DNA of 64,000 bases from Candidatus Methylomirabilales bacterium (GCA_041599135.1 JBFHXD010000001.1:7473-71472), one strand, 5' to 3'. Counted from the first letter of the stretch, positions 30,305 to 50,354 are shown. Numbers and translations are program-made. Notes: a model not told the origin generated them from the letters alone.

Positions 30305-30326
30305 GATTCCCCCCAGATTCGCTTAC

Positions 30327-30415: not shown

Positions 30416-30425
30416 GTGCACAAAA

Positions 30426-30868
<443 letters not shown>

Positions 30869-31043
30869 AGCCCTTTTTCGCATCTGAGAACCTGTAAATC
30901 CCTGGAAATTTAATGGGAACCTAGAAACCAGCACATCTGTCTTTCCCTTCTCACCCCCTTCTTTCATGCCCACGGATTAGGCAGATCTCTTGTCCTTGCC
31001 CGTTTGATCGGCAGGATCCCAGTAAAGCTGTCAGCGGTCGATT

Positions 31044-31097
31044 CGATGACCGATCACCGCTAACCGATGACCGTCTCTAGTCGGTCGTCGATCAACG
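31044..31097. repeat. Heptamer palindromic array (family B)
   Basis: CGATGAC CGATCAC CGCTAAC CGATGAC (31044-31071), then an inverted GTCGTCG ATCAACG (31084-31097) that overlaps the stop codon of the galT-like gene. Confidence 0.75.
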
Positions 31098-32102: not shown

Positions 32103-32116
32103 GGAGATGCCTCCCT

Positions 32117-33046: not shown

Positions 33047-33058
33047 CGTTTCACCCTC

Positions 33059-33571
33059 TCACCGCACGGCCACCCGAGCTTGAAGGCGATTGCTGACCTG
33101 TCCCCGCTCATCGACGACAAAGACTTCATAGACTCGTGATCCGCCGATTTTCTCTAATTGCTTGTCGGGACCCACCGCCCCTCCTTCAAATCCTCGCGCT
33201 TGTGAGCGGAGGACCGGGGCGGAGGGGCGTTCAATGCTGACGGTGATCGTCTCCCTCGCCGTCCCTTCCGTTCGTCCGAGGTACCGGCCCCGGCTGAGCA
33301 GCTGATTCTCGAGTCCCGTGGCCACCGTAAAGTCTGTGACCTCTCTTATTACGCCGTAGTAGACGTCCACAATATCTCCATCGATGTCTCGAAAATCAAA
33401 GAGTAAGGTTACCTCCCCCCCACTCTCCACCACGGGCGGCTCGATCCGAAAATTGCTGATGCGGGGAACGCCGGGACCAGGCGCGGTAGGCTTGTATTTC
33501 GAACAGCCGCCCCAGAGTCCCAGTACAATAACACATCCCACGACGGTCAATCCCCGAGCCGCTTGTCTCAT
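33059..33571 (-). CDS. Lipoprotein of unknown function
   Basis: Signal peptide with lipobox LGLWGG-C. Beta-rich mature part. 4-nt overlap with the hyuB stop. Confidence 0.6.
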   Translation of the reverse strand: MRQAARGLTVVGCVIVLGLWGGCSKYKPTAPGPGVPRISNFRIEPPVVESGGEVTLLFDFRDIDGDIVDVYYGVIREVTDFTVATGLENQLLSRGRYLGRTEGTARETITVSIERPSAPVLRSQARGFEGGAVGPDKQLEKIGGSRVYEVFVVDERGQVSNRLQARVAVR

Positions 33572-35151: not shown

Positions 35152-35160
35152 GAGCCCCCT

Positions 35161-37137
35161 CTACACGTCCTGATTTGTGAGGAGGAGATTCCCTTGAGCG
35201 TCCACCGAGGCCTCCCACCCTGATGGGATAAGCGTGGTGGCACTCATCTCCACGACCAGCGCCGGCCCACCAATCCGGTTGCCCGCCCGCAACGCCTCTC
35301 GGGCGAAGACGGGGGCCTCCACCCAATGATCCTCGAGAAAGATCCGGCGCGCTCCGACGCAGGCCGATGCCGGATCCGCTGAACCCTCGTCCACCCCGGG
35401 CAGGGGTGGCTTCTCGACCTCGCCCCTGGCCCGAAGGCGGAGCGTCACGCTTTCGGTCTCCCGCGTAGGATTCGCGTAGCCATAGCTTCTCTGATGCATT
35501 TCGTGAAATCGCGTCGCGAAATCCCTTGCGAAGGGCACACGCAGCTCATAGGACTGTCCGAGGTAGCGCATGTCCACGAAAGTTTCCGTCGTGATTAAAT
35601 GCTCGGGCACCCCCTCATCTTTCATTTCGCGGAGCCCCTGCTCCTTGAGCAGGCTCACGATGGCCTCGAGCTCATCGAACGGCGTCGTGGCTGTTGGCCG
35701 CAAAATCGTCTTGGCGTAATCCTTCACCACGTCGGCCACCAACATCCCGTAGGCCGACAGTAGTCCTGCATGCATCGGGACCAACACCCGAGGGATAGAG
35801 AGGCAGGCGGCCAGGGAACAGGCATGCAGCCCTCCCGCGCCGCCGAACGAGACTAAACAGAACTCCCGAGGGTCGTAGCCTCGCTCCACGGAAATGACCC
35901 GGATCGCCTTTTCCATGACCGCATTGGCCACGGTGATGGTCCCTTCCGCCAGTCGAAGCGGGTCGAGCTTTATCTGGCGGGCAAAATCCGTCATCGCTGC
36001 CTCGGCTCGTTCCACCTCGAGCCGCATCTTCCCTCCAAGAAACCGGTCCGGATCGAGTCGTCCCAGGCAGAGGTGCGCATCCGTGACCGTGATCCGGTCT
36101 CCCCGACCGTAGCAGACCGGTCCGGGATCGGCCCCCGCGCTTTGCGGGCCGACGCGCAACGCGCCTCCCTCATCGATCCAGACTAACGACCCGCCTCCTG
36201 AGCCTACAGTGTGGATATCGAGCAGAGGAACGCGAAGCGGCAGGCCCCCAACGGCGGCCTCGGTCGTCACACTTGGGTCGCCGTCAACCAGAGAGACATC
36301 GGTCGAGGTGCCGCCCATGTCGAACGTAATCACTTTCTCAAAGCCCGCGTGCCTCGCGACGGAGGCAGCTCCCACGACGCCCCCTGCCGGACCCGAGAGG
36401 ATGGTCCGGACCGCCTCCTGGCGAGCCGTCGCCGCAGAGATACTGCCTCCATTGGACTGCATGATCCGGAGACGTCCTTCCCCGACCTCTGCTTCGAGAC
36501 GGCCGAGGTATCGTTCCATTAAGGGCGAGACGTAGGCATTCACCACGGTAGTCGCGCACCGCTCGTACTCGCGGTACTCTGGCAGAATCCGGTGAGACGC
36601 CGAAACCGGTATTCCGAGTGCCACGGTCCGTTGCATGACTCGGGCCTCATGACTCGGGTTGGCATATGAAAAAAGGAAGCAGATGGCGACCGACTCGACC
36701 TGCTCTTTGGCCAGGTGGCCTAACAGAGGACCCAGACGCTCGTCATCGAGAGGCTCCAGGACCTGTCCTCGACAGTCCATCCGCTCTCGGATGCCGAAGC
36801 GGAGCGAACGGGGAACCAGCACCGTGGAACGCTCAACCATAAAATCGTAGAGGCGGATGCGATCCTGGCGGGCGATCTCAAGCAGATCTTCGAATCCTGC
36901 CGTGGTAATCAGGGCGACTTTCGCTCCCCGCCGCTCGAGGAGGGCATTGGTCGCCACGGTGGAGCCATGAACAAGCTGCCATCCTTCCTGTCGAAATGCC
37001 TCGTCAGAAAGTCCCTCGAGCACACCCCGGGCCGGGTCGGGTGGAGTGGAAAGCACCTTGCGCGTCCAGAGTCTCCCCTGGGTGACAAAGACGAGATCGG
37101 TGAAGGTCCCCCCCACATCCACGCCGATCTTCATCAT
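35161..37137 (-). CDS. Hydantoinase A / 5-oxoprolinase-family subunit (HyuA)
   Basis: MKIGVDVGGTFTDLV (ASKHA ATPase N-terminus), GPAGGVVGA, and FDMGGTSTDVSL. Confidence 0.9.
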   Translation of the reverse strand: MMKIGVDVGGTFTDLVFVTQGRLWTRKVLSTPPDPARGVLEGLSDEAFRQEGWQLVHGSTVATNALLERRGAKVALITTAGFEDLLEIARQDRIRLYDFMVERSTVLVPRSLRFGIRERMDCRGQVLEPLDDERLGPLLGHLAKEQVESVAICFLFSYANPSHEARVMQRTVALGIPVSASHRILPEYREYERCATTVVNAYVSPLMERYLGRLEAEVGEGRLRIMQSNGGSISAATARQEAVRTILSGPAGGVVGAASVARHAGFEKVITFDMGGTSTDVSLVDGDPSVTTEAAVGGLPLRVPLLDIHTVGSGGGSLVWIDEGGALRVGPQSAGADPGPVCYGRGDRITVTDAHLCLGRLDPDRFLGGKMRLEVERAEAAMTDFARQIKLDPLRLAEGTITVANAVMEKAIRVISVERGYDPREFCLVSFGGAGGLHACSLAACLSIPRVLVPMHAGLLSAYGMLVADVVKDYAKTILRPTATTPFDELEAIVSLLKEQGLREMKDEGVPEHLITTETFVDMRYLGQSYELRVPFARDFATRFHEMHQRSYGYANPTRETESVTLRLRARGEVEKPPLPGVDEGSADPASACVGARRIFLEDHWVEAPVFAREALRAGNRIGGPALVVEMSATTLIPSGWEASVDAQGNLLLTNQDV

Positions 37138-37940
37138 CTGTCACCCTCGCCAGACGCTTTTCCATCTTCGTCCAGCAGATCGGTGATGAACATATGACCA
37201 GGGGCATGGGTGATCATGAGCTCGGGTTTCGCATGCATGGCGACAGCCTGCGGGGTCACACCACAGGCCCAGAAGACCGGATGTTCTCCTGGACGGATCG
37301 AGACCGGGTCCCCGAAGTCGGGTTGGCTCAGGTCGACAATGCCAATCGCTTCAGGGTCGGCCAGCTGGACCGGGGCCCCGTGGGCCAGCGGGAAGCGAGC
37401 GGTTACCTCGACCGCTCGCGGGATGAGGGAAGCCGGGATCGGACGCATCGAGACCACCAACGGTCCGGAAAAAACACCAGCCGAACGGCACGACCGATTG
37501 GTGATGTACATCGACACATTCTTCCCTTCCTCGAGATGCCGGACCGGGACACCCGCCCTTTGAAGCGCAACATCAAAGGTGAAACTACAACCTAAAAGGA
37601 AAGCAACCAAGTCGTCCCGCCAAACCCCACGCAGATCGGTCACCTCCTGCGCCAGCTCGCCACCTCTGTACACGCGATATTTCGGGAGATCAGTCCGGAG
37701 GTCCGCGCCTGGCGCAACCGCCTTCGTTTCCGCCTCGCCTGGATCGGTGACCTCCAGCAGAGGACAGGGCTTGGGATTACGGTGACAGAAGACGAGGAAG
37801 TCGTATGCCAGCGCCTGTGGCAGAATCACCAGGTTGGCTTGCACGTAGCCATCGCAGCAGCCGGCCGTGGGGCCTTGCCACTCGCCGGACCGGATCTTCG
37901 CTCGCATTGCCTTCGGATGAAGATGATTGGTGAGGCGCAT
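37134..37940 (-). CDS. DUF1445 / UPF0317 putative hydro-lyase (N-terminal-domain family of D-glutamate cyclase)
   Basis: RAKIRSGEWQGPTAGCCDGYVQANLVILPQALAYDFLVFCHRNPKPCPLLEV is the characteristic DUF1445 N-terminal block. 4-nt overlap with the hyuA start. Confidence 0.75.
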   Translation of the reverse strand: MRLTNHLHPKAMRAKIRSGEWQGPTAGCCDGYVQANLVILPQALAYDFLVFCHRNPKPCPLLEVTDPGEAETKAVAPGADLRTDLPKYRVYRGGELAQEVTDLRGVWRDDLVAFLLGCSFTFDVALQRAGVPVRHLEEGKNVSMYITNRSCRSAGVFSGPLVVSMRPIPASLIPRAVEVTARFPLAHGAPVQLADPEAIGIVDLSQPDFGDPVSIRPGEHPVFWACGVTPQAVAMHAKPELMITHAPGHMFITDLLDEDGKASGEGDR

Positions 37941-37946
37941 ATTCGC

Positions 37947-38369
37947 CTATCGGGTCTCTTTGCTCTTGGTGATGAGAATGGTCGTGGTGTAGCGTCGGGT
38001 CTGGCCCTGCTCATCAGGGATGACGGAGCCGCCGGGAAAATGATTCACCCGGACCTCGAGCTCTGGTACCGCTGCATCCTTACTTCCCTTCAGGACGAAC
38101 CGGTACGTCTCCGTCCCGTCGGGATCCTGAGTGCGTTCAGGTGTCTTCCCGGTCCTCGATTCATAAAACCGGGCGACCGAAATGCTCACATCGTTCGAGG
38201 CAAAGAGATAGCGCTGAGCCGGCCCTTGGGTGAAGCTTTCCACAAAGGTCGCCTTGGGATAAATGGGGACTCCCAGAGTCTTTTCCGAGGGTCGCCTCTG
38301 CGCATGGGCAGATACGCCGAGGAGCAGCACAAGACCGAGAACGGCTGCACATCGTGTGCTGGGACTCAT
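37947..38369 (-). CDS. Secreted protein of unknown function
   Basis: Signal peptide AAVLGLVLLLGVSAHA-Q. 140 aa. G-rich RBS. First gene after a terminator. Confidence 0.55.
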   Translation of the reverse strand: MSPSTRCAAVLGLVLLLGVSAHAQRRPSEKTLGVPIYPKATFVESFTQGPAQRYLFASNDVSISVARFYESRTGKTPERTQDPDGTETYRFVLKGSKDAAVPELEVRVNHFPGGSVIPDEQGQTRRYTTTILITKSKETR

Positions 38370-38511
38370 CCCCTCCCCCTTTCTCCATCACCTGTATTTC
38401 CCGGGGAAGCCAGAGGTGAGAGGAGATCCCCCCGGCCTCACTGGATATCCCCAAGATAGGAACAGGATGGCTGCGACGCAAACCTTTTTTAGAGGAGGGA
38501 AGAGGTCCGAA

Positions 38512-38549
38512 CAAAAAAAGGGGGCGGAGCGTGATTGCCTCCGCACCCC
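38512..38549 (-). terminator. Rho-independent terminator
   Basis: Minus strand: GGGGTGCGGAG-loop-CTCCGCCCCC (10 bp, one bulge) followed by TTTTTTT, 27 nt after stop 38576. Confidence 0.75.
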
Positions 38550-38575
38550 TCGGCTCTCAGCACGGACTACAGGAG

Positions 38576-38836
38576 TTATCCTAAATTCTCGACCGTCGTC
38601 TGAGGTCGCGCCGGTTGCACCGCTGCGGCCTCCCACCACGCCGAGATGCGCTTGGGCTGGGCGACGACCGCCGGCCTCGTGTACACAGTGAAGAGACTCT
38701 GGGCACAATCTGCGCAGTAGGCAGTGCCCTCGGGGGCATACGCGCAGGTCGGGCAACAGAACTCGCCACAGTGAAGGCACCCCCACTCTTCTATGATCGA
38801 CTTGAGTTCGAATCCGCATCCACACATCCGAGGCAT
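38576..38836 (-). CDS. Small Cys-rich zinc-finger (B-box-like) protein
   Basis: AAGGAGGAG-N4-ATG. The 86-aa product has 9 Cys in the first 44 residues (CGC...CLHCGEFCCPTC...YCADC). Confidence 0.6.
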   Translation of the reverse strand: MPRMCGCGFELKSIIEEWGCLHCGEFCCPTCAYAPEGTAYCADCAQSLFTVYTRPAVVAQPKRISAWWEAAAVQPARPQTTVENLG

Positions 38837-38901
38837 CGACTCCTCCTTGGCAATTAATCTTTAGAGCAAAAGTCACGGGCCGCGGTGACCGCCGCGCCCC
38901 G

Positions 38902-38936
38902 AATAAAAAGCCACGGGGCAGCGTCTACCCCGTGGC
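38902..38936 (-). terminator. Rho-independent terminator
   Basis: Minus strand: GCCACGGGG-tagacgctg-CCCCGTGGC followed by TTTTTATT. Confidence 0.75.
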
Positions 38937-38957
38937 TCAATCCGCAGGCCCGCAGTG

Positions 38958-39038
38958 CTACGGGCCGCCCGCCAGGGGGCAGACGCCACGTACACCTACG
39001 AGCACAACTCCGATGATCCGATCGAATCCGGCCACCAA
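38958..39038 (-). CDS. Candidate 25-26-aa hydrophobic peptide (below the ORF-track cut-off)
   Basis: AAGGAG (39048-39043), then in-frame TTG 39038 and GTG 39035. Product is (M)VAGFDRIIGVVLVGVRGVCPLAGGP, ending at TAG 38960-38958. Flanked by its own promoter and terminator. Confidence 0.3.
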   Translation of the reverse strand: MVAGFDRIIGVVLVGVRGVCPLAGGP

Positions 39039-39061
39039 TGGGCTCCTTGTAATGATCAACT

Positions 39062-39091
39062 TTAATACCACGTGACGCGTCTTCATGTCAA
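39062..39091 (-). promoter_or_regulatory. Sigma-70 promoter of the small-peptide/sRNA unit
   Basis: Minus strand: TTGACA (39091-39086), 18-nt spacer, TATTAA (39067-39062). Confidence 0.55.
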
Positions 39092-39171
39092 GTCCTTATT
39101 TCTGCTGGGCTCGTCCCCTATCCCGATCCTCGGCGGCCACGCCAACTGCTCATGCGGTCCTCCCCTTGCCG

Positions 39172-39969
39172 TCACGGGCGATTCCCGGAGACCGGCTTTT
39201 GCGCGTAGTTCGCCGCGGCCTTCAGCAAAGCCCCGAACAACTTCAGATGGTGTTGATCCCGGAAGCCCAAACGTTCGGGGTGCCAGTGGACTCCCACGAC
39301 GAACGGACTCCCGGTGACCTCAATCGCCTCGATCATGCCATCAGGAGAGACTGCACTCACCCTGCAGGTTTGGCCAAGCGCCTTGATCAATTGATGATGG
39401 TGACAGTTGACGCGCAGCGATGCTTCGCCAAATATCTCGTGCAAGAGAGTCCCAGGTGTTACGGTCACGGAGGGCATCTCACCCTGTTCCTGCCAGCTCC
39501 CATCGTGGAAATCCATGGCCGTATCACAGTACGCCAGGTCTTGATACAGGCTTCCCCCGAGGGCCACCGCGATCAGTTGCATGCCCCGGCAAATGCCCAA
39601 GACCGGCATCCCGCGCTCGACGGCCCCCCGCAGAAGTTCGACTTCGAAAAGATCCCGTTTCTCGTCAATGGCCCCGCACTTTTCGAGGACGAACTCTCCG
39701 TAAAAGGAGGGATGAATGTCCTCTCCCCCCGAAAAGAGCAGGCCATCAGCAAAATCGAGATATGCCCCAATGAGTTCGCGATCGTATCCCGGAGTGGGCA
39801 AGATATAGGGTACCCCGCCACCTTCCACCACCCACCAGGAGTACGATCCTCGGACTCTATCTTCGTGCCCACCCCCCTGCTCCTCAAGGGAGTGCCTCCC
39901 GCTCGTGATACAGATGCGCGGCCGCACAGAAGGCGACTCCGGATTGACCTCGTGCCTCTCTCCCCTCAC
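39172..39969 (-). CDS. Peptidase C26 / class-I glutamine amidotransferase-like gamma-glutamyl hydrolase (PuuD family)
   Basis: GICRGMQLIAVALGG (nucleophile Cys) and the HHQ and WHPE blocks. The GTG start overlaps the upstream stop (GTGA). Confidence 0.8.
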   Translation of the reverse strand: MRGERHEVNPESPSVRPRICITSGRHSLEEQGGGHEDRVRGSYSWWVVEGGGVPYILPTPGYDRELIGAYLDFADGLLFSGGEDIHPSFYGEFVLEKCGAIDEKRDLFEVELLRGAVERGMPVLGICRGMQLIAVALGGSLYQDLAYCDTAMDFHDGSWQEQGEMPSVTVTPGTLLHEIFGEASLRVNCHHHQLIKALGQTCRVSAVSPDGMIEAIEVTGSPFVVGVHWHPERLGFRDQHHLKLFGALLKAAANYAQKPVSGNRP

Positions 39970-41570
39970 CGCTGCGCTCCTACGCTTCCCTTCATGCCAG
40001 CTCCAAAACGGCGTAGTACACGCCCGGCGCGCGCACCGGTGTGTTCTCCCTCCTCAACCGTGATCACGCCGTTCACGAGCACATAATGAATGCCGTCCGG
40101 GTACTGGATCGGGTCTTCGTAGCTTGCCCGATCCCTCACCCCCTCGGGATCAAAGAGGACCAGGTCCGCATAGTAGCCAGACGCGACGAGGCCCCGACTA
40201 GCCAGCCCAAAGCGACGGCACGGATCGAATGTCATCTTCCGCACTGCGGTGGGAAGCTCAAGCAGGCGCTTTTCGCGAACGTAATACCCCAAGACCCGCG
40301 GGAAGGTGCCGAAGGTGCGGGGGTGAGGCCGGCCCCGGCTCAGCGGACCGACATGGGCCCGGGTCCCGCTATCGGAGGCGACCATGACGTAGGGCCGGCT
40401 CAAGATCTGCTCAAGGTTCTCTTCAGACATAGTGAAAAAAATGGCGTCGACGCGTGCCTCCTCTTCCGTGAGGAGATCGCACGCAAACTCGATCGGTTCT
40501 TTCCCGGCCAACGTGGCCGCCTGATCGACCCGCATTCCTTCGTACCGCCTATTCTCCTCACGAGTCACCTCGGCGATCATGATCTGATCCCATCGCCGTT
40601 CAGCCAGTTCCAATCTCAGTCGCTGCCGGACCGCACGATCCCGCAATCGGGAGACCTGATCCTCCCTGCGGCCCTCCAGCACCCACGACGGCATGACGGC
40701 CTGCAGCCCCGTGTTCGACGCCGTGTAAGGATAGCGATCAGCGGTCACGTCCTGCCCGAAGGACTGTGCCTCTTCGATGAGGTGGAGGGCTTCCGGCAGT
40801 TTTCTCCAGTTTCGCTCGCCGGAAGTCTTGAGGTGGGAAATCTGGAGAGGAATGTGAGCCTGCCGAGCCACATCGAGAATTTCCCGGATCGCCTCCAAGA
40901 GCCCGTCCCCTTCGCTCCGCATGTGGCAGGTGAGCACGCCCCCTTCTTCGCGAGTGACGCAAGCCAGCGCCACCAACTCTTCGGGCTCGGCAAAGCAGGC
41001 AGGGGCGTACACGAGGCCCGTCGATAGGCCGAGGGCCCCCTCCCGCATTCCCTCGCGGACTGCCTGGATCATTGCCTCCATCTCCTTCATCTCAGGCGGC
41101 CGGGCCACTCCCCCCATGGCCGAGCCTCGGATGGTGTTGTGGCCGAGGAGCAGACCAAAGTTGATGGAGAACCGCTCGGCGGTAAGGGTCTGGAAATACT
41201 CGTGGACCCCCTGCCATCGGTGGTCGAGGCCAAACAGCTCCCGGTACGTTCGGGCGCGCTCCTCTCTCCACTCCCCCCAGATCGGCGCGGCAGCATAGCC
41301 ACAGTTGCCCCCGATCTCTGCGGTTACCCCTTGGCGGACCGCGCTCTCCGCGCGCGGATTCAAGAGCAGATAGTAATCGGAGTGGGAGTGGGCGTCCACG
41401 AACCCGGGACAGGCGATCAGCCCCTCTGCCCGAATAATTCGCCGCCCTTCGGTTTCAGAGACCTTCCCGACGGCAACGATGCGATCCTCCTTGAGCGCGA
41501 TGTTCCCGACATAGGCCGGCGAACCGCTCCCATCTACAATCGTTGCACTCGCGATGACTAGATCGAACAT
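39966..41570 (-). CDS. N-acyl-D-amino-acid deacylase (D-aminoacylase, amidohydrolase superfamily)
   Basis: FDLVIASATIVDGSG...PGFVDAHSHSD metal-binding start. 534 aa. The typical D-aminoacylase C-terminal beta-barrel segment is present. Confidence 0.85.
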   Translation of the reverse strand: MFDLVIASATIVDGSGSPAYVGNIALKEDRIVAVGKVSETEGRRIIRAEGLIACPGFVDAHSHSDYYLLLNPRAESAVRQGVTAEIGGNCGYAAAPIWGEWREERARTYRELFGLDHRWQGVHEYFQTLTAERFSINFGLLLGHNTIRGSAMGGVARPPEMKEMEAMIQAVREGMREGALGLSTGLVYAPACFAEPEELVALACVTREEGGVLTCHMRSEGDGLLEAIREILDVARQAHIPLQISHLKTSGERNWRKLPEALHLIEEAQSFGQDVTADRYPYTASNTGLQAVMPSWVLEGRREDQVSRLRDRAVRQRLRLELAERRWDQIMIAEVTREENRRYEGMRVDQAATLAGKEPIEFACDLLTEEEARVDAIFFTMSEENLEQILSRPYVMVASDSGTRAHVGPLSRGRPHPRTFGTFPRVLGYYVREKRLLELPTAVRKMTFDPCRRFGLASRGLVASGYYADLVLFDPEGVRDRASYEDPIQYPDGIHYVLVNGVITVEEGEHTGARAGRVLRRFGAGMKGSVGAQR

Positions 41571-41573
41571 GAC

Positions 41574-41594
41574 CGATGACCGTTTACCGATGAC
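41574..41594. repeat. Heptamer array (family B), short copy
   Basis: CGATGAC CGTTTAC CGATGAC directly abuts the D-aminoacylase start codon (41568-41570). Confidence 0.6.
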
Positions 41595-41635
41595 GGCTCG
41601 ACTGATCTCGTCGAAGTCCGACGACGGAGGACTGG

Positions 41636-42487
41636 TTACCAGGCAAACAAAGCATTTTGATTCGTTTTTCGGGTGCTTCGGCGCCCCCGATATCGGACCG
41701 TGTCCACGGGGGAGCCATCAGGGGCCCGTAACGTCGCGGCATCCCCATCGTTATTCCAGATGGGACCACGGGACTGCCAGTAGAGCACGATCTGCTCCTG
41801 CGGATCTGTCAGGTCCGTTCCCCGCCCACTCAACAGCAGCACCGAGTAGCCGGGCTTCAAGGTCAGGGCCGGAAAGGTGTAACGGTGGCCATGGCGGTCG
41901 GTGACGGTGTAGCCGCCAATGTCCACCGCGTCATCGTCAACGTTCGCGATCCGGACATACTCTCCATTCGGATTGCGGCGATCATTCCCTGGCGCGTTGG
42001 CCTTGAGCGAGGTGATCTTCAGAGGCCCGATGATGGACTCCCAGATGCCGCGCCGAGCAGCCCGCGCCTGCCGCTGAAGTTCGAGCAATCGGTCGTAGTG
42101 TTTGTGGTTGGGGGGAATCACCAGGAGATGGGCGAGCCCCGCCTCGATGAGCCGCGCATTCACCATTTCCCCATGAACATACACATATGCCAGCAGGCGA
42201 CTGTACTGATCTTCCCGAGCCTCATCCTCCTCCAGCGTCACCAGCCGCCCTTCCGTCAGCCGTCGATTCAGGGCGGTCGCCATCTCAAAGTACGGCTCAT
42301 GCCGTTCGGGAGCATTGATGCCTAGATACCGGACCCGCCTGCCATCTTCGAGCACAACCGTGTCCCCGTCGATCACCTGCCGGATTTTGGCTGAGACTGC
42401 GACCCCCGGCACAGCCTGCACGAGTACCACGAGCAGCGCAAAGATCGGGACCGCTTTCCATTGATTACAAGAGGGCAATCCTGTCAC
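41636..42487 (-). CDS. Secreted staphylococcal-nuclease-like (SNase) protein with a C-terminal lamin-tail (LTD) domain
   Basis: GTG 42487 is preceded by GAGGAG-N7. Signal/TM AVPIFALLVVLVQAVPGVAVSA. SNase block VIDGDTVVLEDGRRVRYLGINAPE. LTD block NAPGNDRRNPNGEYVRIANV. Confidence 0.75.
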   Translation of the reverse strand: MTGLPSCNQWKAVPIFALLVVLVQAVPGVAVSAKIRQVIDGDTVVLEDGRRVRYLGINAPERHEPYFEMATALNRRLTEGRLVTLEEDEAREDQYSRLLAYVYVHGEMVNARLIEAGLAHLLVIPPNHKHYDRLLELQRQARAARRGIWESIIGPLKITSLKANAPGNDRRNPNGEYVRIANVDDDAVDIGGYTVTDRHGHRYTFPALTLKPGYSVLLLSGRGTDLTDPQEQIVLYWQSRGPIWNNDGDAATLRAPDGSPVDTVRYRGRRSTRKTNQNALFAW

Positions 42488-43199
42488 GGTATTTCTCCTC
42501 GAGTCGGCGATTGTGCTCGTCCCCTCCCGGAAGATTGGCACTCAGATACACCGGCGGGGTCAGGCCTTCGACGAGATAGTGTTCCACCACACGGCAGATG
42601 AGGCGGTTCATCAAGAAGATTCCAGTGACGGCCGAGGTGGGACCGACCTTGCCCTCCCATCCGGGATAGGCGACAGCGGCATCTCCTGTCTCTCCACCGT
42701 TATCCAAGCACAGGTCGGCAACCTCGAAGAGCCGTTTCCCGCTCGGGTGCCGGGCCGGCACCGCCTGGGAATGCACCAGGGACGTCAGGGCAATCACGAA
42801 GAGTCCTCGCTGTTTGGCCTCAAGGGCGATCTCGACCGGCACCGCGTTGATCCCGGAGTTCGACACCACAATCAACACTTCCCCGGGTCGCAGGTGGTGA
42901 CGATCGAGGAGGATTGATGCCATCCCTGAAAGCCGTTCCATCTTGCGGGTCACGGCCGGAGGGGCAAGCGGAGTGAGAAAGGTCTCGTGAATCAGATTGA
43001 CTGGAACAAGCCCGCCCGCTCGATGAAACGCCTCCTGCGCAACCGCGATGGAATGACCGCTCCCGAAGACGTGCAGAACGCCCTCCTGTTTGAGCGACCC
43101 AAAGATCGCCTCCGCGGCCTGCTCTAACGCTGCCCCCTGCGTCTCTTCGATTTGACCGAGGAGTTTGAGCACTGTGGCCGTGTACGGGTGCTGCTTCAT
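42465..43199 (-). CDS. SIS-domain sugar-phosphate isomerase/etherase-like protein (UPF0309-like)
   Basis: In-frame ATG 43199. VLHVFGSGHSIAVAQE and LIVVSNSGINAVPVEIALEAKQRG are SIS phosphosugar-binding blocks. Confidence 0.7.
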   Translation of the reverse strand: MKQHPYTATVLKLLGQIEETQGAALEQAAEAIFGSLKQEGVLHVFGSGHSIAVAQEAFHRAGGLVPVNLIHETFLTPLAPPAVTRKMERLSGMASILLDRHHLRPGEVLIVVSNSGINAVPVEIALEAKQRGLFVIALTSLVHSQAVPARHPSGKRLFEVADLCLDNGGETGDAAVAYPGWEGKVGPTSAVTGIFLMNRLICRVVEHYLVEGLTPPVYLSANLPGGDEHNRRLEEKYRDRIALL

Positions 43200-43209
43200 G
43201 CGCCTCTCA

Positions 43210-44367
43210 TCACGAAAGCCCTGAAAACCCCTTGCCGGGAACGATCTTTCCCAGCGGAACCGCGTGCCTCGCTCCGGTCGCCGCAGGAACGTTTCCCGGC
43301 TGTCCAGCAAAGGTCAGATAGGCGAGGACGGCAAAAGCCGTCGCCTCAACCGCCTTGGTCGGATATCCCAGATCATCGCTGGGAAGGACAGGTCGGGGTT
43401 GCAACCGCGCCTCGATGGCATGTCTGAGCCAGCGGTTTTGAACACCCCCACCGCACAACACAATCTCGTCCACAGCGTGGCGCGGGAAGATGAAGGTCTC
43501 GAGGCTTTTCGCGATCCCCTCCACCGTCAGGGCAGACACCGTCGCCACGAGATCGGCCGGCGGGATTCCCTCACGGTCCGCCCCGACCAGGATTTCGTCC
43601 ACCATTCGAAGCCCAAACTCTTCCTGACCCGCACTCCGGGGAGGAGGCCGGTGGAAAAAGGGGTGATCTACCAGTCGCCGCAAAAGGGTTTGATGTATCT
43701 TTCCCGATGCCGCCCACGCCCCGTCGATATCGTACTCCAAAGATCCACCACTCAGTCGCCGAACGACTCCGTCGATCAGGACATTGCCTGGCCCCGCGTC
43801 GAAGGCCGCGATCCCGGCGACAGAGCCATCGGGAGGGAGCAGAGTGAGATTTGAGATGCCCCCGAGATTGACAATCACTCGGCACCGTTCGGGATGTCGA
43901 AAAAGCACATAATGGGGATACGGGGTGAGGGGAGCGCCCTCGCCGCCAGCCGCCATGTCCCTGGGCCGAAAGTCGGCCACCGTCGAAAGTCCGGTTCGCT
44001 CAACAATGATAGAGGGCTCACCAATCTGCAGGGTCGAGCGGAGCACCAGGTCTCCCTCGACTACCGCGGTCGGAAGATGGCAGACGGTCTGACCGTGGGA
44101 TCCGATGAGGGCCACATCGGCCGGGGAGAAGCCAGCCAGCTTCACGAGATCAAGAGCCGCTTGCGCGAAAAGCTCCCCGAGCAATACGTTGAGATGACAG
44201 ACCTCTCGAAGGGCATCAGGATGTGTGGAGAGCCGGAGGATTTGATCTCGAATGCCTGAGGGATAGGAACGGTGCTCAAAGTGAAGCAGCGTGACGTGCG
44301 GATGGTGAGCCTCCTCGGTGATCTCCACTAACGCGGCGTCGATCCCGTCCGCCGAGGTCCCGGACAT
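43210..44367 (-). CDS. anmK: Anhydro-N-acetylmuramic acid kinase
   Basis: MSGTSADGIDAALVEI N-terminus, NLGGISN, and the DAGPGN AnmK signature blocks. Confidence 0.9.
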   Translation of the reverse strand: MSGTSADGIDAALVEITEEAHHPHVTLLHFEHRSYPSGIRDQILRLSTHPDALREVCHLNVLLGELFAQAALDLVKLAGFSPADVALIGSHGQTVCHLPTAVVEGDLVLRSTLQIGEPSIIVERTGLSTVADFRPRDMAAGGEGAPLTPYPHYVLFRHPERCRVIVNLGGISNLTLLPPDGSVAGIAAFDAGPGNVLIDGVVRRLSGGSLEYDIDGAWAASGKIHQTLLRRLVDHPFFHRPPPRSAGQEEFGLRMVDEILVGADREGIPPADLVATVSALTVEGIAKSLETFIFPRHAVDEIVLCGGGVQNRWLRHAIEARLQPRPVLPSDDLGYPTKAVEATAFAVLAYLTFAGQPGNVPAATGARHAVPLGKIVPGKGFSGLS

Positions 44368-44381
44368 GAGCCCAATGACCT

Positions 44382-45560
44382 TCAGGGACGCCTCCCTCCT
44401 GCAAATTCAGCCTTGACCTGGTCCAGGGCGTCGCGGTCTTTCAGCAGATCAAGGCCGGTGAGGGCCATGGCCCTGGCCGCCAGAAGCATGCCCTCCTCTC
44501 CGGCCGCCGAGCCGGAGGCCACGGCAAATTCGGTCATGTGGCAGCTCACCTGGGACCCGCAAATCGTGATGGTGGGCTGAAGGGTGGGAACAACCTGGCT
44601 CACATTCCCCACATCGGTGGACCCCAGCTCCCCCTCTTCTGGACCCTGATCGACCTGACCTCCCAGCGCCTCAAGGTTCTGGCGAAAGAGGTGCGCGAGA
44701 GTATAGTTGATCCTATGGGGGTGATAGTCATACCCCGCACGCTTGACTTGATATCGGGTCCCGGTCGCATAGGCGGCCGCCTCGAAGCAGCCCAGCACCT
44801 TTTGGTAGAGTTCTTCCAGATACTCCATGTCTAACGCCCGGACGTAGAAGAGGGCCGCAGCATAATCCGGGATGATGTTCGGGGCTTTCCCCCCATGCGT
44901 GATAATCCCGTGGATCCGGGCATCGGAGCGGACCTGTTGTCGAAGGGCATTGATGTTATTGAAAGTCAGAATGACGGCATCGAGGGCGTTGACCCCGAGA
45001 TGCGGGACCGCCGCGGCGTGCGCGGCCTTGCCGAAGAACTCTACCGTGACATCACGCATTCCGAGCGCTTTCTTGACGATTTCGGTTCGGTTACTCGGAT
45101 GGACCAACATCGCTGCATCCACCCACTGAAACACCCCGGACTCCACCAAGGGTATCTTGCCTCCCCCCCTCTCCTCGGCCGGGCATCCCACGAGCAGGAC
45201 GCGGCCACGCACCTGACCCACGCAAGCTTTCAGGGCCAAGGCGGCCCCGACCGAGCCGGATGCAATGAGATTGTGACCACACGCGTGCCCAATGCCCGGA
45301 AGGGCATCGTACTCGGCCAGGAAGGCGATGGTGGGTCCGTCACCCGAAGCGTACGTGGCGGTAAAGGCGGTGGCGAGCCCTGCCGCTCCGCGTTCGACGG
45401 AAAAGCCATGCGCTTCCATCGTCCGGGTGAGCAGGTCAGCCGCCTGATACTCCTCAAAGGCGAGTTCGGGATTGGCATGGAGGAACCGGCTGACCTGCAA
45501 CAGCTCGGGGCTGAGTCGATCGACCTCTGTGACCACCGCCTGCTTCAGCGAATCCAGCAT
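44382..45560 (-). CDS. M20-family metallopeptidase / amidohydrolase
   Basis: EYDALPGIGHACGHNLIA metal-ligand block, GCPAEE, and a dimerisation-domain pattern. Confidence 0.85.
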   Translation of the reverse strand: MLDSLKQAVVTEVDRLSPELLQVSRFLHANPELAFEEYQAADLLTRTMEAHGFSVERGAAGLATAFTATYASGDGPTIAFLAEYDALPGIGHACGHNLIASGSVGAALALKACVGQVRGRVLLVGCPAEERGGGKIPLVESGVFQWVDAAMLVHPSNRTEIVKKALGMRDVTVEFFGKAAHAAAVPHLGVNALDAVILTFNNINALRQQVRSDARIHGIITHGGKAPNIIPDYAAALFYVRALDMEYLEELYQKVLGCFEAAAYATGTRYQVKRAGYDYHPHRINYTLAHLFRQNLEALGGQVDQGPEEGELGSTDVGNVSQVVPTLQPTITICGSQVSCHMTEFAVASGSAAGEEGMLLAARAMALTGLDLLKDRDALDQVKAEFAGGRRP

Positions 45561-45680
45561 CTGTTACTCCCTGCGATCGATTGCCAGGTCTTTTCTGAAA
45601 AACTACCACGAAACGGCTGGAAACACAATGTGGGACAGGCGCGGGACTGGGATGATAGAGCGGAGACGAGTGGTCGAGAC

Positions 45681-48155
45681 TCACTCGTACAGCGAGGCGT
45701 CCGGCATCTTCTCTTGAAAGAGACGGATCTGGGGCGAGATGGAAGGCAGGGCGTGGGTATCGGGGGCGGCGTTTACCCGAAAGTTGAGCGGGACGGGACC
45801 GGGAACAGGTACCTCCGCGCCGATAAACGGTGAGCTCTCGTCAAGACCGATGGAAAGGCGGGCACCCAGGGGCTCGTAGGGAAGCAGCCCTTCGAGCTGC
45901 ACGCCGTCCATGCTGGCACTCCCCTGGATCTGCGGAAAGGGGAGGAACGATTGACTCCCCTCCTCCTTGCCCAGAAACTCGGAAGGTTTGAGATGCACTT
46001 CGGGTTCCCGATCCACCCGATCCTGGGCAGGATCCCGGGCAAAGAGAAAGGCGGGTAGATCAGGCTGGTCGGTAAGCAGGGGCACCGTTTCTCCCGGCTT
46101 CTGGAACGCGCCTTCATACACGTGTTGGCGCAGCATGCGGAGGACTCGCTCTGCGGTTTTCCGATTGAGATTGTAAATCCGCGCCCGAGTCCCCTCAGGG
46201 CTCTCGAAGGTGATAACCAGGAGACCCGTTTCCAGCAGGGTGACGCCGTCGGATGCGATTTCGGTGTTGTCTGGATCTTCGTCCAACAGGCTTGGCTTGA
46301 GTCGTAGCCCCTCCTGAGCCACGGCTGGATGCTCTTGGAGGAACTGCTTGCTCAACCGCAGCCCCTGATACTGGGGCGCCAACAGCTCCCGGAAACGCCG
46401 CCCCGCCTCACGGGCGACTTGTGTCTCCGGATAGTTGCGCAAGATGGCGCCGAGGGTCTCGGCTCGCTGGGCGGGTGGAATCTCGTCGGCTCGTTCGAGT
46501 AACATCTCGGCAACCCGCTCTTCCAGCTCGCGGATGTGATCCGGATCAGCCTCCGCCTCCCGATAGTAGTACAGCGCCCGGTCATAGCGATCTTCCTTTT
46601 CATACGCCTCGGCGAGCAGCATACACACGTCCCGGTAGTGGGCGTCCTCTCGCGGGTGCTCGCGCAAGTACTGTCCCGCCGCCTCAATGATGGCGCTCCG
46701 AGACACGGGATTCCCGGTCAGCACACGGATGCCCCGGAGACCGACGCCGGCAGCAGCCGCTGCGCCTATCGGGATCGCAGCCGGCGTCCCGTAGAGAAGG
46801 ATGGTGGTGGGACTCTGAGCGACGGCTTGTTTCAGCGTCTCGCTCCCGCCCAAAATGTAACTCAGCGTCTTCCGAACATGTTGATACTCGGCTTCCCGGA
46901 TGCCAACCAACTGATTATAGTGGGGATCGTCCAAGAGGAGCCTCGCCTGCTCCTGCCGTAACGCGGACCATCCGTTCCCCGCCAGCTCCTCTAGCACTTC
47001 GTCTGCTTTTTCCTTCTGGCCCTCGAGTTCGTAGGCAAGGGCCATGACATCCGCGGCGATATCCCTGAGGGAATCTTCGTGATGACGGCTTGCCAGCTTC
47101 TGTGCTGCCGCCCGCATCATGGTCGGCTGCCGCCTGGTCGTGGCCAGGAGCAGGGTATAATACAGGGCCTCGTCGGAAGCGCCGGTGAACGAAAGAGACT
47201 CCAGTGAACTCCTCAGCGTCTCCGCCTGGCGATCCTGTTGCGCCTGGCGCAACGCCTTTACCATTTCCATTCCAGCTTCTGCTTCGTCGGAGACAGCATC
47301 CAGGCCAAGGGCCATTTCGAAGTAGTGTTCAGCCATCCAGAGGTCCCCGGCTTCTAGTGCCGTCTCACCTCGTTCGAGCTGTTTTTCCAGGAGCGCCTCC
47401 CGCTTCTTGGCCATGAGCCGGTTCACATCCTGTTTGACCCTTTCGGCTTCAGGGTCCTCGGGATACCGGGCCAAGAACTGTTGGTACAAGACCAGGGCCT
47501 TTCGTTCTTCCACGCTCATCCGGTGCAACTCCCCGGAGTGGAGCAGCACATCCACGGCAGAATCGATTGCCGGCGCCATCAGGGGATCCAGGACAAAGCT
47601 GGTCAGATTGACCGACCGAAGCACGCGATTCAAGACCTTGCCCACGCGCGCGAAGATACTTTCATGGTAGAGCCCGTCCGCCTGGGTGAGTTCGTCCCGT
47701 GCCAGTCGCCACGAGATCACGGCCTCGTTCTCGGGCTCCCGCACGTTGTCCATCGCCGCTTTCTGTGCCTCCAGGAATGTCTCCCGATCAGTCAGCATGC
47801 TGTGGTAGAGATCCCGAACCCTTGCACTGAGTCCCGTCACCGGCCGACCTTCCCGCCGCCGCGCCTCATCTTCACGGCGGAGAAAATCGAGATCGGTCCG
47901 AAGGGATTCTCCATTCCCCAGGTAGGCAGCGATGATGGCCTTTCGCACCGCATGATCGATCTCATCAGGGTAATAGCGCGGTGGTTCTTTTTCTGTCTCA
48001 AAGGGGGAGGAGGGTGAAAGCGGTTCGATAACCGGCCGGCCGTTTGGAGGATGGTTTGCGCCGACCGACGGCGGGCCGAGGGGAAGCAGCAGCACCCACA
48101 CTCCGATCGCGAGCGCCTGACCCCACGCACCGAGCCGCTCTTTCCCCCTTTGCAT
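45681..48155 (-). CDS. Large exported alpha-helical (TPR-like) protein of unknown function
   Basis: 824 aa, with the signal-like N-terminus LAIGVWVLLLPLGPPSVGA. Long helical repeats. No catalytic motif seen. Confidence 0.6.
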   Translation of the reverse strand: MQRGKERLGAWGQALAIGVWVLLLPLGPPSVGANHPPNGRPVIEPLSPSSPFETEKEPPRYYPDEIDHAVRKAIIAAYLGNGESLRTDLDFLRREDEARRREGRPVTGLSARVRDLYHSMLTDRETFLEAQKAAMDNVREPENEAVISWRLARDELTQADGLYHESIFARVGKVLNRVLRSVNLTSFVLDPLMAPAIDSAVDVLLHSGELHRMSVEERKALVLYQQFLARYPEDPEAERVKQDVNRLMAKKREALLEKQLERGETALEAGDLWMAEHYFEMALGLDAVSDEAEAGMEMVKALRQAQQDRQAETLRSSLESLSFTGASDEALYYTLLLATTRRQPTMMRAAAQKLASRHHEDSLRDIAADVMALAYELEGQKEKADEVLEELAGNGWSALRQEQARLLLDDPHYNQLVGIREAEYQHVRKTLSYILGGSETLKQAVAQSPTTILLYGTPAAIPIGAAAAAGVGLRGIRVLTGNPVSRSAIIEAAGQYLREHPREDAHYRDVCMLLAEAYEKEDRYDRALYYYREAEADPDHIRELEERVAEMLLERADEIPPAQRAETLGAILRNYPETQVAREAGRRFRELLAPQYQGLRLSKQFLQEHPAVAQEGLRLKPSLLDEDPDNTEIASDGVTLLETGLLVITFESPEGTRARIYNLNRKTAERVLRMLRQHVYEGAFQKPGETVPLLTDQPDLPAFLFARDPAQDRVDREPEVHLKPSEFLGKEEGSQSFLPFPQIQGSASMDGVQLEGLLPYEPLGARLSIGLDESSPFIGAEVPVPGPVPLNFRVNAAPDTHALPSISPQIRLFQEKMPDASLYE

Positions 48156-48163
48156 TCCGCCTC

Positions 48164-49198
48164 CTATTGACTTGCGGCCCGAACTTTCGAGACGTACGCT
48201 TGCAGTGCCTGGAGCTTCCCCTGGGCCTCGAGCTTCTCCAGAGAACCATCCTTCTGTGCCACGTCGGCATATAGGCGCCAGGCTTTACTCGTCCACTGCG
48301 AGAAGTGCTCCCATTGGAATGTCCGGTCCTCCGGTGGATGTGCCCGGGCGTATTCCTTGGCTAAGACTACGTAGAAGTCGGCAAATTCGACCACGTACGC
48401 ATTCCGGTGTTTACTGACTTCATGCGTCCTGATGAGGGTCTGGTATGCGTCGATCACCAACGTGTTTCCTTCCTTCAAGCGGTGCCGGTTCTCCTCGAGA
48501 TACTCCACCTTCAGACGGTCCAACCTTTCCGCCTCGATAAGGGCGAGAAATTCGTATGCGCTTCCCCGATACGTCTCCCGAAGTGTCCGCCAGGCCCCTG
48601 CCTTTCCCTCGAGGTGCGCCACAAAGGCCGTTGCGTCTCCATCCGCCGTGCCATAGCCCTGGAGGACGCGCTCAAAATCGCTGAGCGCTGCGAGGCTATT
48701 TTGGGCCTCCGGCTGCAAGGGGGAGGAGTTCATCTCGGCCACCAGACGGTAGGCGTCGATCGCCTTCCCGTATTCCCGGAGCCGTTCATACGCCATACCT
48801 TTGGTATACAGGATGATATCCGTGTAGCGACCCGGATGTTTCTGCGCGTAGTCCTCGAGGCGGATCAGGGTCGCCTTATAGACATTGAGCCCCGCGATGT
48901 CCTTGGGGGCCGAGAATCGGTAGAGATCCTCTCGTGAGAAGCGGTGGAAGTCGGTGACGATATCCAGCAGGCTTTCAGACGGGGCATACCGGGGGTCTTT
49001 TGCCACGCCCCCCGCACACCCGGCCAACACCAGGGGCAGGAGAATGACGCGACAGACAGCGAGCTGCAGACGCCACCTTCGCCAGCCTATGCGCCCACCC
49101 TGCGTTGGTCGAGCACTCTCACGGATCAGTAACCTGGTCAATAATCTGTCCCTCGCTGTCGATCGCGAGAAAACTCCGGCTCTGGCCGACCGTGACAA
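48164..49198 (-). CDS. TPR-like lipoprotein of unknown function (start uncertain)
   Basis: Lipobox LVLAG-C about 50 residues into the ORF. The annotated ATG overlaps the upstream gene by 80 nt, so a downstream non-ATG start is likely. Confidence 0.5.
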   Translation of the reverse strand: MSRSARAGVFSRSTARDRLLTRLLIRESARPTQGGRIGWRRWRLQLAVCRVILLPLVLAGCAGGVAKDPRYAPSESLLDIVTDFHRFSREDLYRFSAPKDIAGLNVYKATLIRLEDYAQKHPGRYTDIILYTKGMAYERLREYGKAIDAYRLVAEMNSSPLQPEAQNSLAALSDFERVLQGYGTADGDATAFVAHLEGKAGAWRTLRETYRGSAYEFLALIEAERLDRLKVEYLEENRHRLKEGNTLVIDAYQTLIRTHEVSKHRNAYVVEFADFYVVLAKEYARAHPPEDRTFQWEHFSQWTSKAWRLYADVAQKDGSLEKLEAQGKLQALQAYVSKVRAASQ

Positions 49199-50354
49199 GG
49201 GAAAAGTATCGCTTGGGAGCGGTTTTCGCGAGGTACCAACGGTCCCGGGGTTTTCTCGGCATCACACCCCAGGCACCGTCACCGAGATACAAGACCCCTT
49301 TCGGATCGACCTTGCCGGCTCGAATCCGGTGGGTGCGCTTGTAGACGTGCCCATGATGTTCAAAGGCGCCGTCTACGCCAAATTGCTCAAACAGCGGCAC
49401 CCAGTGCTCACGGATCTTTGCGCTGACGCCGTTGTCGAAGTTCTGCACAGACGGATAGGCCGGCACATGGTAGACCGCAAAGAGGTGGGGCACATCCTGT
49501 CGATCGGCCAACGTCCGGCGTAACCAATCCGTTTGCTCGCCATCAATGGCATGGGTGTGTCCCGAATCTAATACCACGAGGCTCAAGTACCGCCCAAAGT
49601 CTAAGACTCTGTAACTCCGCTTGTCCGGCAGGGCAAATAAGCTATAGAAATACGGCGCCTCTTCGGGCGTCTGGTTAAAGCCGCCCTTGACCTCGTGGTT
49701 GCCGATTGCGACCACTAACGGGATCAGCCGCCCGTCAGACGTCACCATGTATTTCTTCCACCCGGCCAGCCAACGATACCAGCGCCCCACCAATTTCGCT
49801 TCACCATTGGCGTAGGCGATGTCGCCGCCAATGACCGTGAACATCGGGTCCTGCTTGGCCACGAGGCGGCAGGTCTCTTCATACCATTCGTCGAACAGGT
49901 CGAAGTCGTCCATCGTATCTCCGCCGACGACGAAACGGATGGGCTTGCTCATGTTAGAGGGCATCGTACGGAATGTAAACTGGACCGAATTTTCCCCAAA
50001 ACGGAACCGGTAATCGGTCCCTGGCTTCAGGCCGGTCAATTCCGCCACGTGCACCATCCGATCGGAATGAGGCATCGGGTGGTGCGAACCTCTGAAAGTG
50101 TGCCACACCCCTTCGTCGAGCTGCTGGTACTGCACGACGTCGTCGCGTCCCCCATTGCTATGCCACTGGATCGTCATGGTGGTCGTCGGATCGCGCTGCC
50201 AGGTCAAGTAGACTGCAGGCGGATCGAATGGTGCTGCTTCTTTCTCAGAAGCGGGTTTGGGCACCCCGGCTTTCGCACAGGCCAGTGCCAGGGAGGCGGC
50301 CCCCACTAGCGCTATGAGCCTTCGCCAGGACTTCTCTGTCCTCACGCGTGACAT
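49119..50354 (-). CDS. Exported purple-acid-phosphatase-like metallophosphoesterase
   Basis: Lipobox-type signal peptide (ASLALA-C). N-terminal FN3-like domain. Metallophosphoesterase motifs GGDIAYANG, IGNHE and HHGHVY. Confidence 0.8.
   Translation of the reverse strand: MSRVRTEKSWRRLIALVGAASLALACAKAGVPKPASEKEAAPFDPPAVYLTWQRDPTTTMTIQWHSNGGRDDVVQYQQLDEGVWHTFRGSHHPMPHSDRMVHVAELTGLKPGTDYRFRFGENSVQFTFRTMPSNMSKPIRFVVGGDTMDDFDLFDEWYEETCRLVAKQDPMFTVIGGDIAYANGEAKLVGRWYRWLAGWKKYMVTSDGRLIPLVVAIGNHEVKGGFNQTPEEAPYFYSLFALPDKRSYRVLDFGRYLSLVVLDSGHTHAIDGEQTDWLRRTLADRQDVPHLFAVYHVPAYPSVQNFDNGVSAKIREHWVPLFEQFGVDGAFEHHGHVYKRTHRIRAGKVDPKGVLYLGDGAWGVMPRKPRDRWYLAKTAPKRYFSLVTVGQSRSFLAIDSEGQIIDQVTDP

Follow-up and report, generated by a model that had tools for sequence, protein, structure and literature searches.

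Bacteria that recycle peptidoglycan in the manner of Escherichia coli rely on AmpG, NagZ, AmpD, LdcA, AnmK, MurQ, NagA and Mpl, together with MpaA, YcjG and PepD, and the Pseudomonas-type salvage of N-acetylmuramic acid (MurNAc) runs through AnmK, MupP, AmgK and MurU, with AnmK but no MurQ. No enzyme except MurQ is known to split the lactyl ether of MurNAc. Work on mycobacteria explicitly postulates a further etherase, distinct from MurQ and not yet identified (bioRxiv 10.64898/2026.03.23.713626), and our literature search found no paper on a MurNAc 6-phosphate (MurNAc-6-P) etherase of the UPF0309 type. The sole characterised member of the UPF0309 family, NagS (SCO4393), is the N-acetylglucosamine 6-phosphate (GlcNAc-6-P) dehydratase of Streptomyces; its product is a 2,3-unsaturated sugar phosphate (6-P-chromogen I), which the amidohydrolase NagA then deacetylates (PMC12680351). 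Here we analysed a window of 64,000 nucleotides from a methane-oxidising Candidatus Methylomirabilales bacterium (GCA_041599135.1), a metagenome-assembled genome of 2.69 Mb from the NC10 phylum that is 94% complete. Within the window, six minus-strand genes lie in series (Table 1), and among them anmK is followed by a gene for a single-domain SIS enzyme of the UPF0309/NagS family. The cluster is probably a cytoplasmic operon of Methylomirabilales that salvages peptidoglycan turnover products, with the SIS enzyme taking MurQ's role.

AnmK and its SIS-fold partners across the phylum

A single set of 121 genomes of the phylum was searched for UPF0309 SIS proteins, AnmK and MurQ alike. Within the window's order (families f1, f2, f4 and f5), UPF0309 SIS proteins were present in 30 of 35 genomes and AnmK in 31, the SIS gene standing directly after anmK among the matches listed, and MurQ was found in none of the 35. 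The sister family f8 has the complementary arrangement: all eight of its genomes carry both AnmK and MurQ, with murQ directly upstream of anmK, and none carries a UPF0309 SIS protein. Family f7 combines frequent MurQ (66/73) with a single occurrence each of AnmK and of the UPF0309 SIS protein (1/73 for both). Given that the neighbour of AnmK is a UPF0309 protein in some lineages and MurQ in others, the two can be regarded as alternative SIS-fold partners of AnmK, and where the neighbour is UPF0309 nothing else in the lineage can be recognised as consuming MurNAc-6-P. This phyletic pattern is the strongest evidence for the SIS enzyme in the MurQ role.

The host genome conforms to the pattern. 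AnmK is present as a single copy and scores above its equivalog cut-off (435.8 against 387 bits for NF007148), and the MurQ profile TIGR00274 retrieved nothing above cut-off from the genome, its only match (22.5 bits) being a 617-amino-acid protein on contig C7. The initial annotation had placed the SIS gene where MurQ normally follows AnmK. The lack of a canonical murQ in the host genome and throughout the order agrees with that proposal, as does the linkage of anmK to the SIS gene, which is kept across the order; the order of the two genes is not borne out, as murQ precedes anmK in the sister family instead of following it.

Additional contexts were found beyond the phylum. The closest homologue of the SIS enzyme outside NC10 (54% identity) is encoded by a gene that overlaps a downstream nagA by 4 nucleotides. 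An unrelated metagenomic contig (L031:1779-5759; Logan SRR31012004) brings together AnmK (455 bits), a UPF0309 SIS protein and a divergently placed pair of AmgK-like and MurU-like genes, both under their equivalog cut-offs, and provides an independent MurNAc-salvage neighbourhood for this family. The NagA links and this contig fit the series AnmK, SIS and, in some cases, NagA, which would correspond to a MurQ-like step. A single-protein locus scan yielded nothing beyond NC10 relatives except one locus from Phycisphaerales, which has no AnmK nearby.

Family, structure and residues of the SIS enzyme

The SIS enzyme is a member of the UPF0309/PRK02947/NagS-type family (NF002805, 293.4 bits against a cut-off of 135, covering profile positions 6-244 of 247), and its PDB matches are 3cvj (E 1e-45) and NagS itself (9eol, E 3e-36). 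Its AlphaFold model (predicted local distance difference test score, 98) superposes on NagS 9eol with a Z score of 34.6 and a root-mean-square deviation of 1.7 Å over 244 residues, at 32% identity in the structural alignment. The next-nearest family is MurQ (4s12), tied with GmhA, with a Z score of 18.6 over 204 residues and 14% identity. NagS orthologues form a group with at least about 58% identity to Streptomyces coelicolor NagS, restricted to Streptomycetaceae and beside a divergent dmdR1 gene (PMC12680351); the window's enzyme falls outside this group, with 32% identity, an NC10 host and, as neighbours, anmK and a nuclease or deacylase gene. It is likewise distinct from the MurQ family (cut-off 302 bits), since TIGR00274 gave no match to it at E ≤ 0.001 and, at 244 residues, it does without the C-terminal lid of MurQ.

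All residues essential in NagS (H53, R64, E94, D179 and N228; structures 9eol, 9f7o and 9f7v) are kept in the SIS enzyme, as H49, R60, E88, D173 and N222, and in a set of 99 family representatives each of these shows conservation of at least 90%. The two enzymes would thus share chemistry through the same 2,3-unsaturated intermediate. Profile comparison by hhalign with a MurQ of the same phylum, remote (25% identity) but of 94% probability, pairs E56 of the SIS enzyme with the glutamate in the MurQ motif DAAEC, and E88 with the first Glu of AVEGAED. In E. coli MurQ these motif glutamates would be the catalytic residues Glu83 and Glu114. NagS differs at the first of these positions, having Asp60 where both the SIS enzyme and MurQ have Glu, and its S91 corresponds to Arg or Gly on the SIS side. 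Retention of the NagS catalytic residues together with glutamates aligned to both MurQ motifs makes the SIS enzyme a strong candidate for cleavage of the lactyl ether of MurNAc-6-P, most likely in place of MurQ, with which it also shares the fold, AnmK as a genomic partner, a position upstream of NagA in some relatives and a predicted reaction. Arg85, at the NagS Ser91 position, was considered as a binder of the lactyl carboxylate and was dropped because most orthologues have Gly or Ser there.

The family as a whole is large, with about 2,300 representatives of clusters matched at E ≤ 1e-3, and its members are fused to or encoded beside BadF- and ROK-type sugar kinases, components of the phosphotransferase system, NanE and NagA-like amidohydrolases, contexts that fit N-acetyl-hexosamine-6-phosphate substrates in general. 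One alternative is that the SIS enzyme acts on another such substrate, for example GlcNAc-6-P derived from NagZ-released GlcNAc, as a dehydratase, isomerase or epimerase of the NagS kind, and that the AnmK product goes to some enzyme not yet recognised, perhaps a phosphatase like MupP. The activity of NagS speaks for this, as do the family members with ROK or BadF kinases, phosphotransferase components, GH20 and Aga- or Nan-type genes unrelated to MurNAc, and the searches made could not single out HAD-type phosphatases such as MupP. Homologues about 30% identical to NagS are inactive on GlcNAc-6-P (PMC12680351), a result that counts against this alternative. It would also leave unexplained the adjacency of anmK and the SIS gene, the order-wide absence of MurQ and the pairing of AnmK with MurQ in the sister family; moreover, no AmgK/MurU was found that could use dephosphorylated MurNAc, and the cluster holds no GlcNAc kinase gene. 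We consider a substrate other than MurNAc-6-P improbable.

Two genomes of genus g6 (G078:C96 and G054:C323) encode extra UPF0309 paralogues (about 240 bits) beside NagA-like genes and apart from the AnmK-linked copy, a sign that these larger genomes may have a second pathway for N-acetyl sugars.

The cluster hydrolases and the proposed salvage route

We compared the window's proteins with loci from 14 related genomes by tblastn. The cluster proteins recur in five other genera of the order at 42-87% identity, spread over four families of Methylomirabilales. In the window's own genus (g1) the gene order of the window is repeated with the nuclease (L004, L008, L024-L026) or without it (L023). Other genera have M20-AnmK-SIS-deacylase (g2, L018); M20-(GT2)-AnmK-SIS-deacylase-C26, followed by a convergent GH3 gene of NagZ size (g3, L002 from a closed genome, L005 and L009); AnmK-SIS-nuclease-NagA-deacylase-C26 (g5, L014), where NagA is canonical (297 bits against a cut-off of 226); and either M20-(x)-AnmK-SIS-(CoA-transferase)-deacylase-C26 or M20-AnmK-SIS-C26 (g6, L017 and L003). 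M20 thus lies upstream of anmK in g1, g2, g3 and g6, and C26 after the deacylase in g1, g3, g5 and g6. The conserved core is M20, AnmK, SIS, deacylase and C26, with gaps in some genera, and the arrangement is not due to chance. The initial annotation's view of a peptidoglycan-fragment salvage cluster marked by AnmK is supported.

Catalytic residues are intact in all three hydrolases. The deacylase matches 9g5m (KleDacyl) and 1m7j (AfDam) at E 1e-88 to 1e-89, 3gip (BbDam/Bb3285) at 3.5e-74 and OngB (9kb1) at 7e-72, and has in common with these enzymes the subtype-V amidohydrolase organisation, the Cys/His/His metal site, the catalytic Asp and the YPY motif. Among 21 orthologues no variation was seen in the metal-site residues H61, H63, C90, H216 and H246, in the catalytic D400 or in Y280-P281-Y282, as expected of the D-aminoacylase type; T287, where OngB needs Ser292, is also invariant. 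At the specificity position the window's enzyme has Met293 and at least 90% of the 21 orthologues have Leu, the counterparts being Leu298 in AfDam, Arg295 in Bb3285, Gln292 in KleDacyl and Gln298 in OngB, as mapped by gapless extension of the four PDB alignments three residues past the HMMER block. The Arg295 of Bb3285 binds the side-chain carboxylate of D-Glu (PMC12149444, PMC12017989). With Met or Leu in place of this Arg, a D-Glu-specific role (EC 3.5.1.82) is not indicated; the initial annotation had raised N-acyl-D-Glu, besides other D-amino acids, as a possible substrate. By its residues the enzyme resembles D-aminoacylases for neutral D-amino acids, AfDam with its hydrophobic specificity residue in particular, rather than D-Glu-specific or sugar-acid enzymes. 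A search for deacylase homologues returned only NC10 orthologues.

The C26 peptidase (PF07722, 201.5 bits) has the GICRG nucleophile and HWHPE motifs of a class-I amidotransferase with a Cys-His-Glu triad, and matches 3fij, 7d4r and PuuD (6vtv) in the PDB; its score of 109 bits against the PuuD equivalog cut-off of 266 indicates that it is not PuuD itself. The M20 protein belongs to M20D (TIGR01891, 224.7 bits against a cut-off of 153.75), has the M20 catalytic and dimerisation domains, carries the HACGH and AEE motifs, and matches HmrA (3ram, E 2e-83) and an Xaa-Arg dipeptidase (7yh4, E 1e-74). It is closest to HmrA and PM20D2, which PMC13759103, citing Jamdar et al. (2015), describes as carboxydipeptidases. 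The idea that M20 stands in for AmpD found no support: Amidase_2 is rare even in the MurQ-type family, three Amidase_3 genes are present in the host genome, and the scarcity of AmpD phylum-wide means that there is no complementary pattern from which a special role of M20 might be read.

We surveyed the host genome for the other recycling genes. NagZ is present (262 bits against an equivalog cut-off of 207), as are an AmpG-family permease ended by a contig edge, an S66/LdcA fragment, three Amidase_3 genes and four SLT lytic transglycosylases; with AnmK, these are what the genome shares with E. coli-type recycling. MurQ, AmpD (Amidase_2), Mpl and NagA were not found in it, the Mpl matches being MurC-F paralogues only, and Amidase_2 was found in 2 of 41 genomes of the order. 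The route had initially been described as lacking the usual Ldc/Mpl/NagZ/AmpD set. This holds for the AmpD-type amidase and Mpl and does not hold for NagZ, nor for Ldc in view of the S66 fragment. No equivalent of the AmgK/MurU pair of Pseudomonas-type salvage was found in the host genome, which has one APH match (without an NCBIfam match) and, as nucleotidyltransferases, two copies of GalU, GlmU and one weak open reading frame (ORF).

In the same genome nagZ starts at the stop codon of an OppC/DppC-type ABC permease gene (G000:C46:1-1646, L020). The two genes may couple NagZ to the import of muropeptides or stem peptides.

Taken together, a non-canonical recycling route with the SIS enzyme in MurQ's role seems well supported by comparative genomics. 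In the proposed route, lytic transglycosylases and Amidase_3 enzymes would free anhydro-muropeptides, anhydro-sugars and stem peptides in the periplasm, to be imported by the AmpG-like permease and possibly also by an Opp-type transporter, and NagZ would remove GlcNAc. AnmK would open and phosphorylate anhydro-MurNAc to MurNAc-6-P. The SIS enzyme, standing in for MurQ, would then strip the 3-O-D-lactyl group by C2-deprotonation and β-elimination, as in MurQ and NagS, and re-hydrate the unsaturated product, most likely to GlcNAc-6-P. On the peptide side, the D-aminoacylase would take the C-terminal D-amino acid off the tetrapeptide, the hydrophobic pocket residue pointing to D-Ala; C26 would cut the bond between γ-D-Glu and meso-diaminopimelic acid (mDAP), and the M20 dipeptidase that between L-Ala and D-Glu. 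From gene clustering and chemistry we infer that the three hydrolases match, one to one, the bonds of L-Ala-γ-D-Glu-mDAP-D-Ala. This trio would act in place of the MpaA (M14), YcjG epimerase and PepD of E. coli.

The fate of the sugar product allows another reading, in which the SIS enzyme acts on MurNAc-6-P purely as a lyase, stopping at unsaturated 6-P-chromogen I, and another enzyme, perhaps the cluster's own amidohydrolase of D-aminoacylase fold, takes over, bypassing GlcNAc-6-P and NagA. It would account for retention of the cluster in families f1 and f2, where NagA was not found, and it has parallels in NagS, which releases the same unsaturated product for deacetylation by NagA, and in OngB, a sugar-acid deacetylase of the D-aminoacylase fold. 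Yet the g5 cluster has both NagA and the deacylase, the closest outgroup couples its SIS gene to nagA, Thr287 of the deacylase is as in amino-acid deacylases rather than the Ser that OngB needs, and the SIS enzyme keeps both MurQ-type glutamate positions. We hold this reading to be distinctly unlikely.

A broader formulation of our proposal, which we put forward only tentatively, is that one clade within the NagS/UPF0309 family is an independently recruited second MurNAc-6-P etherase (or lactyl lyase), which took the place of MurQ in Methylomirabilales and perhaps in other lineages. It would share its operon with a cytoplasmic trio, not described before, that degrades the stem tetrapeptide completely, the D-aminoacylase serving as L,D-carboxypeptidase, C26 as γ-D-Glu-mDAP amidase and M20D as L-Ala-D-Glu dipeptidase. 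If the SIS enzyme does release D-lactate from MurNAc-6-P, part of the orphan UPF0309 family, in which only NagS has been assigned so far, would gain a function, a gap would be filled in metabolic reconstructions of nitrite-dependent methane oxidisers, and new routes of stem-peptide catabolism without AmpD, MpaA or Mpl would be suggested. It is conceivable, though doubtful, that AnmK and the SIS enzyme are the only functional pair and that M20, the deacylase and C26 serve general peptide, D-amino-acid or γ-glutamyl-amide salvage and merely share the transcription unit. D-Aminoacylase paralogues are indeed abundant in the phylum, C26 and M20D enzymes have many substrates outside the wall (PuuD/SpuA substrates, Met-X dipeptides), GT2, CoA-transferase and nuclease genes have been inserted in several genera, and some clusters are without M20 or the deacylase. 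The association of the trio with AnmK-SIS across four families at the identities given above argues for a functional link, as do the AnmK-linked deacylases, which constitute their own orthologue group (at least 60% identity) apart from the paralogues, and the predicted one-to-one mapping of the three chemistries onto the three stem-peptide bonds.

Several observations weigh against a salvage operon with the SIS enzyme in MurQ's role. UPF0309 proteins occur in many non-MurNAc contexts, and family-wide conservation of the NagS catalytic residues defines a chemistry without discriminating a substrate. No AnmK-SIS fusion exists among 12 long homologues. NagA was found in none of ten genomes each of f1 and f2, a complete genome included, which leaves the fate of GlcNAc-6-P in the host genome unexplained; a lyase-only SIS reaction or direct salvage, for instance through a phospho-N-acetylglucosamine mutase activity of GlmM that supplies GlmU, are possible ways out. 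For the peptide side, L014 and L003 have clusters without M20 or without the deacylase, D-aminoacylase paralogues of 40-46% identity are common throughout the phylum, and Amidase_2/AmpD is rare phylum-wide and found in none of the eight f8 genomes. The specificity assignment of the deacylase carries the weakness of its extended alignment, with Met293 falling inside an insertion (mobile) domain that exceeds its counterpart in the solved enzymes by about 37 residues.

Long open frames in g5 had been considered as an AnmK-SIS fusion that could serve as a Rosetta stone; they are two genes in different frames.

Locus architecture and neighbouring genes

Profile and PDB matches gave all six genes the identities and positions of the initial annotation. 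The start codon of the SIS gene is the ATG at 43199, which follows the ribosome-binding site GAGAGG, and not the longest-ORF start at 43310. The gap from M20 to anmK is 14 nucleotides and that from the anmK stop to the SIS ATG is 10; the nuclease start overlaps the 3′ end of the SIS gene, and 65 nucleotides separate the nuclease from the deacylase. The coupling of C26 to the deacylase through GTGA is borne out by the coordinates, a 4-nucleotide overlap of the deacylase stop (39968-39966) with the C26 GTG (39969-39967). The terminator downstream of the six genes is the sole strong minus-strand terminator within 38400-46000 and none lies inside the cluster, so the six genes are one run, uninterrupted by an internal terminator. 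A sigma-70 consensus scan of 38400-46000 found no promoter, and an Rfam search of 30000-50000 gave no match.

Table 1. Features of the AnmK-SIS cluster and its surroundings (window positions)
Feature	Positions	Strand	Basis or remark
M20D-family metallo-amidohydrolase/dipeptidase (HmrA/PM20D2-like)	44382-45560	-	TIGR01891 225 bits; first operon gene
AnmK, anhydro-N-acetylmuramic acid kinase (product MurNAc-6-P)	43210-44367	-	PF03702 339 bits; NF007148 436 bits
UPF0309/NagS-family single-domain SIS enzyme (SIS_2/PRK02947), 244 aa	42465-43199	-	NF002805 293 bits
Secreted SNase + lamin-tail-domain (LTD) nuclease	41636-42487	-	PF00565 + PF00932
D-aminoacylase-family Amidohydro_3 deacylase	39966-41570	-	PF07969; PDB 1m7j E 1.5e-88
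Peptidase C26 (PuuD/SpuA-like γ-glutamyl-amide hydrolase)	39172-39969	-	PF07722 201 bits
Promoter-like elements TTGACA / TATTAA	39091-39086 / 39067-39062		near the 22-25-aa ORF
ORF of 22-25 aa	38958-39035	-	GTG start behind AGGAG
Intrinsic terminator, first downstream of the six genes	38908-38938	-	14-bp stem, 9 GC pairs, then T-run
Cys-rich, zinc-ribbon-like ORF, 86 aa	38576-38836	-	own Shine-Dalgarno and terminator
D-Glu-cyclase operon	32117-37940	-	DUF1445/D-Glu-cyclase-like hydro-lyase (PRK05463, 417 bits), hydantoinase/oxoprolinase A + B, 170-aa protein, separate GLUCM-like_C

Of two elements initially counted with the route, the nuclease does not belong to it and the link to the D-Glu-cyclase operon is not supported. 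The SNase-LTD nuclease begins at the GTG at 42487 behind GAGGAG-N7 and has a hydrophobic, signal-peptide-like N-terminus ending in AVSA, with K following. Present in g1 and g5, it is missing from the same position in L023 of g1 and in g2, g3 and g6, and is a secreted variable insert, not a cytoplasmic pathway member. Other insertions into the cluster, seen in several genera, are the GT2 and CoA-transferase genes. The D-Glu-cyclase operon, which had been proposed as a partner, is separated from the AnmK cluster by two terminators and two small genes. Although widespread in the order, it adjoins the cluster only in g1; in g5 and g6 the operon and the cluster are on different contigs, and no copy of the operon was found in 7 of 10 genomes of g3, a sister genus that keeps the cluster, the closed genome included. 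Within this operon the two halves of the animal D-glutamate cyclase are separate genes that flank an ATP-dependent ring-opening enzyme.

Two small ORFs follow the cluster. The 86-residue Cys-rich ORF is without a Pfam or NCBIfam match and is kept downstream of the cluster within the same genus. The shorter one, between C26 and the terminator, carries the C-terminal motif V-V-G-V-R-G-x-C-x-x-A-x-x-P, which three related genomes preserve while differing by synonymous third-position changes, and could encode a micropeptide or a precursor peptide.

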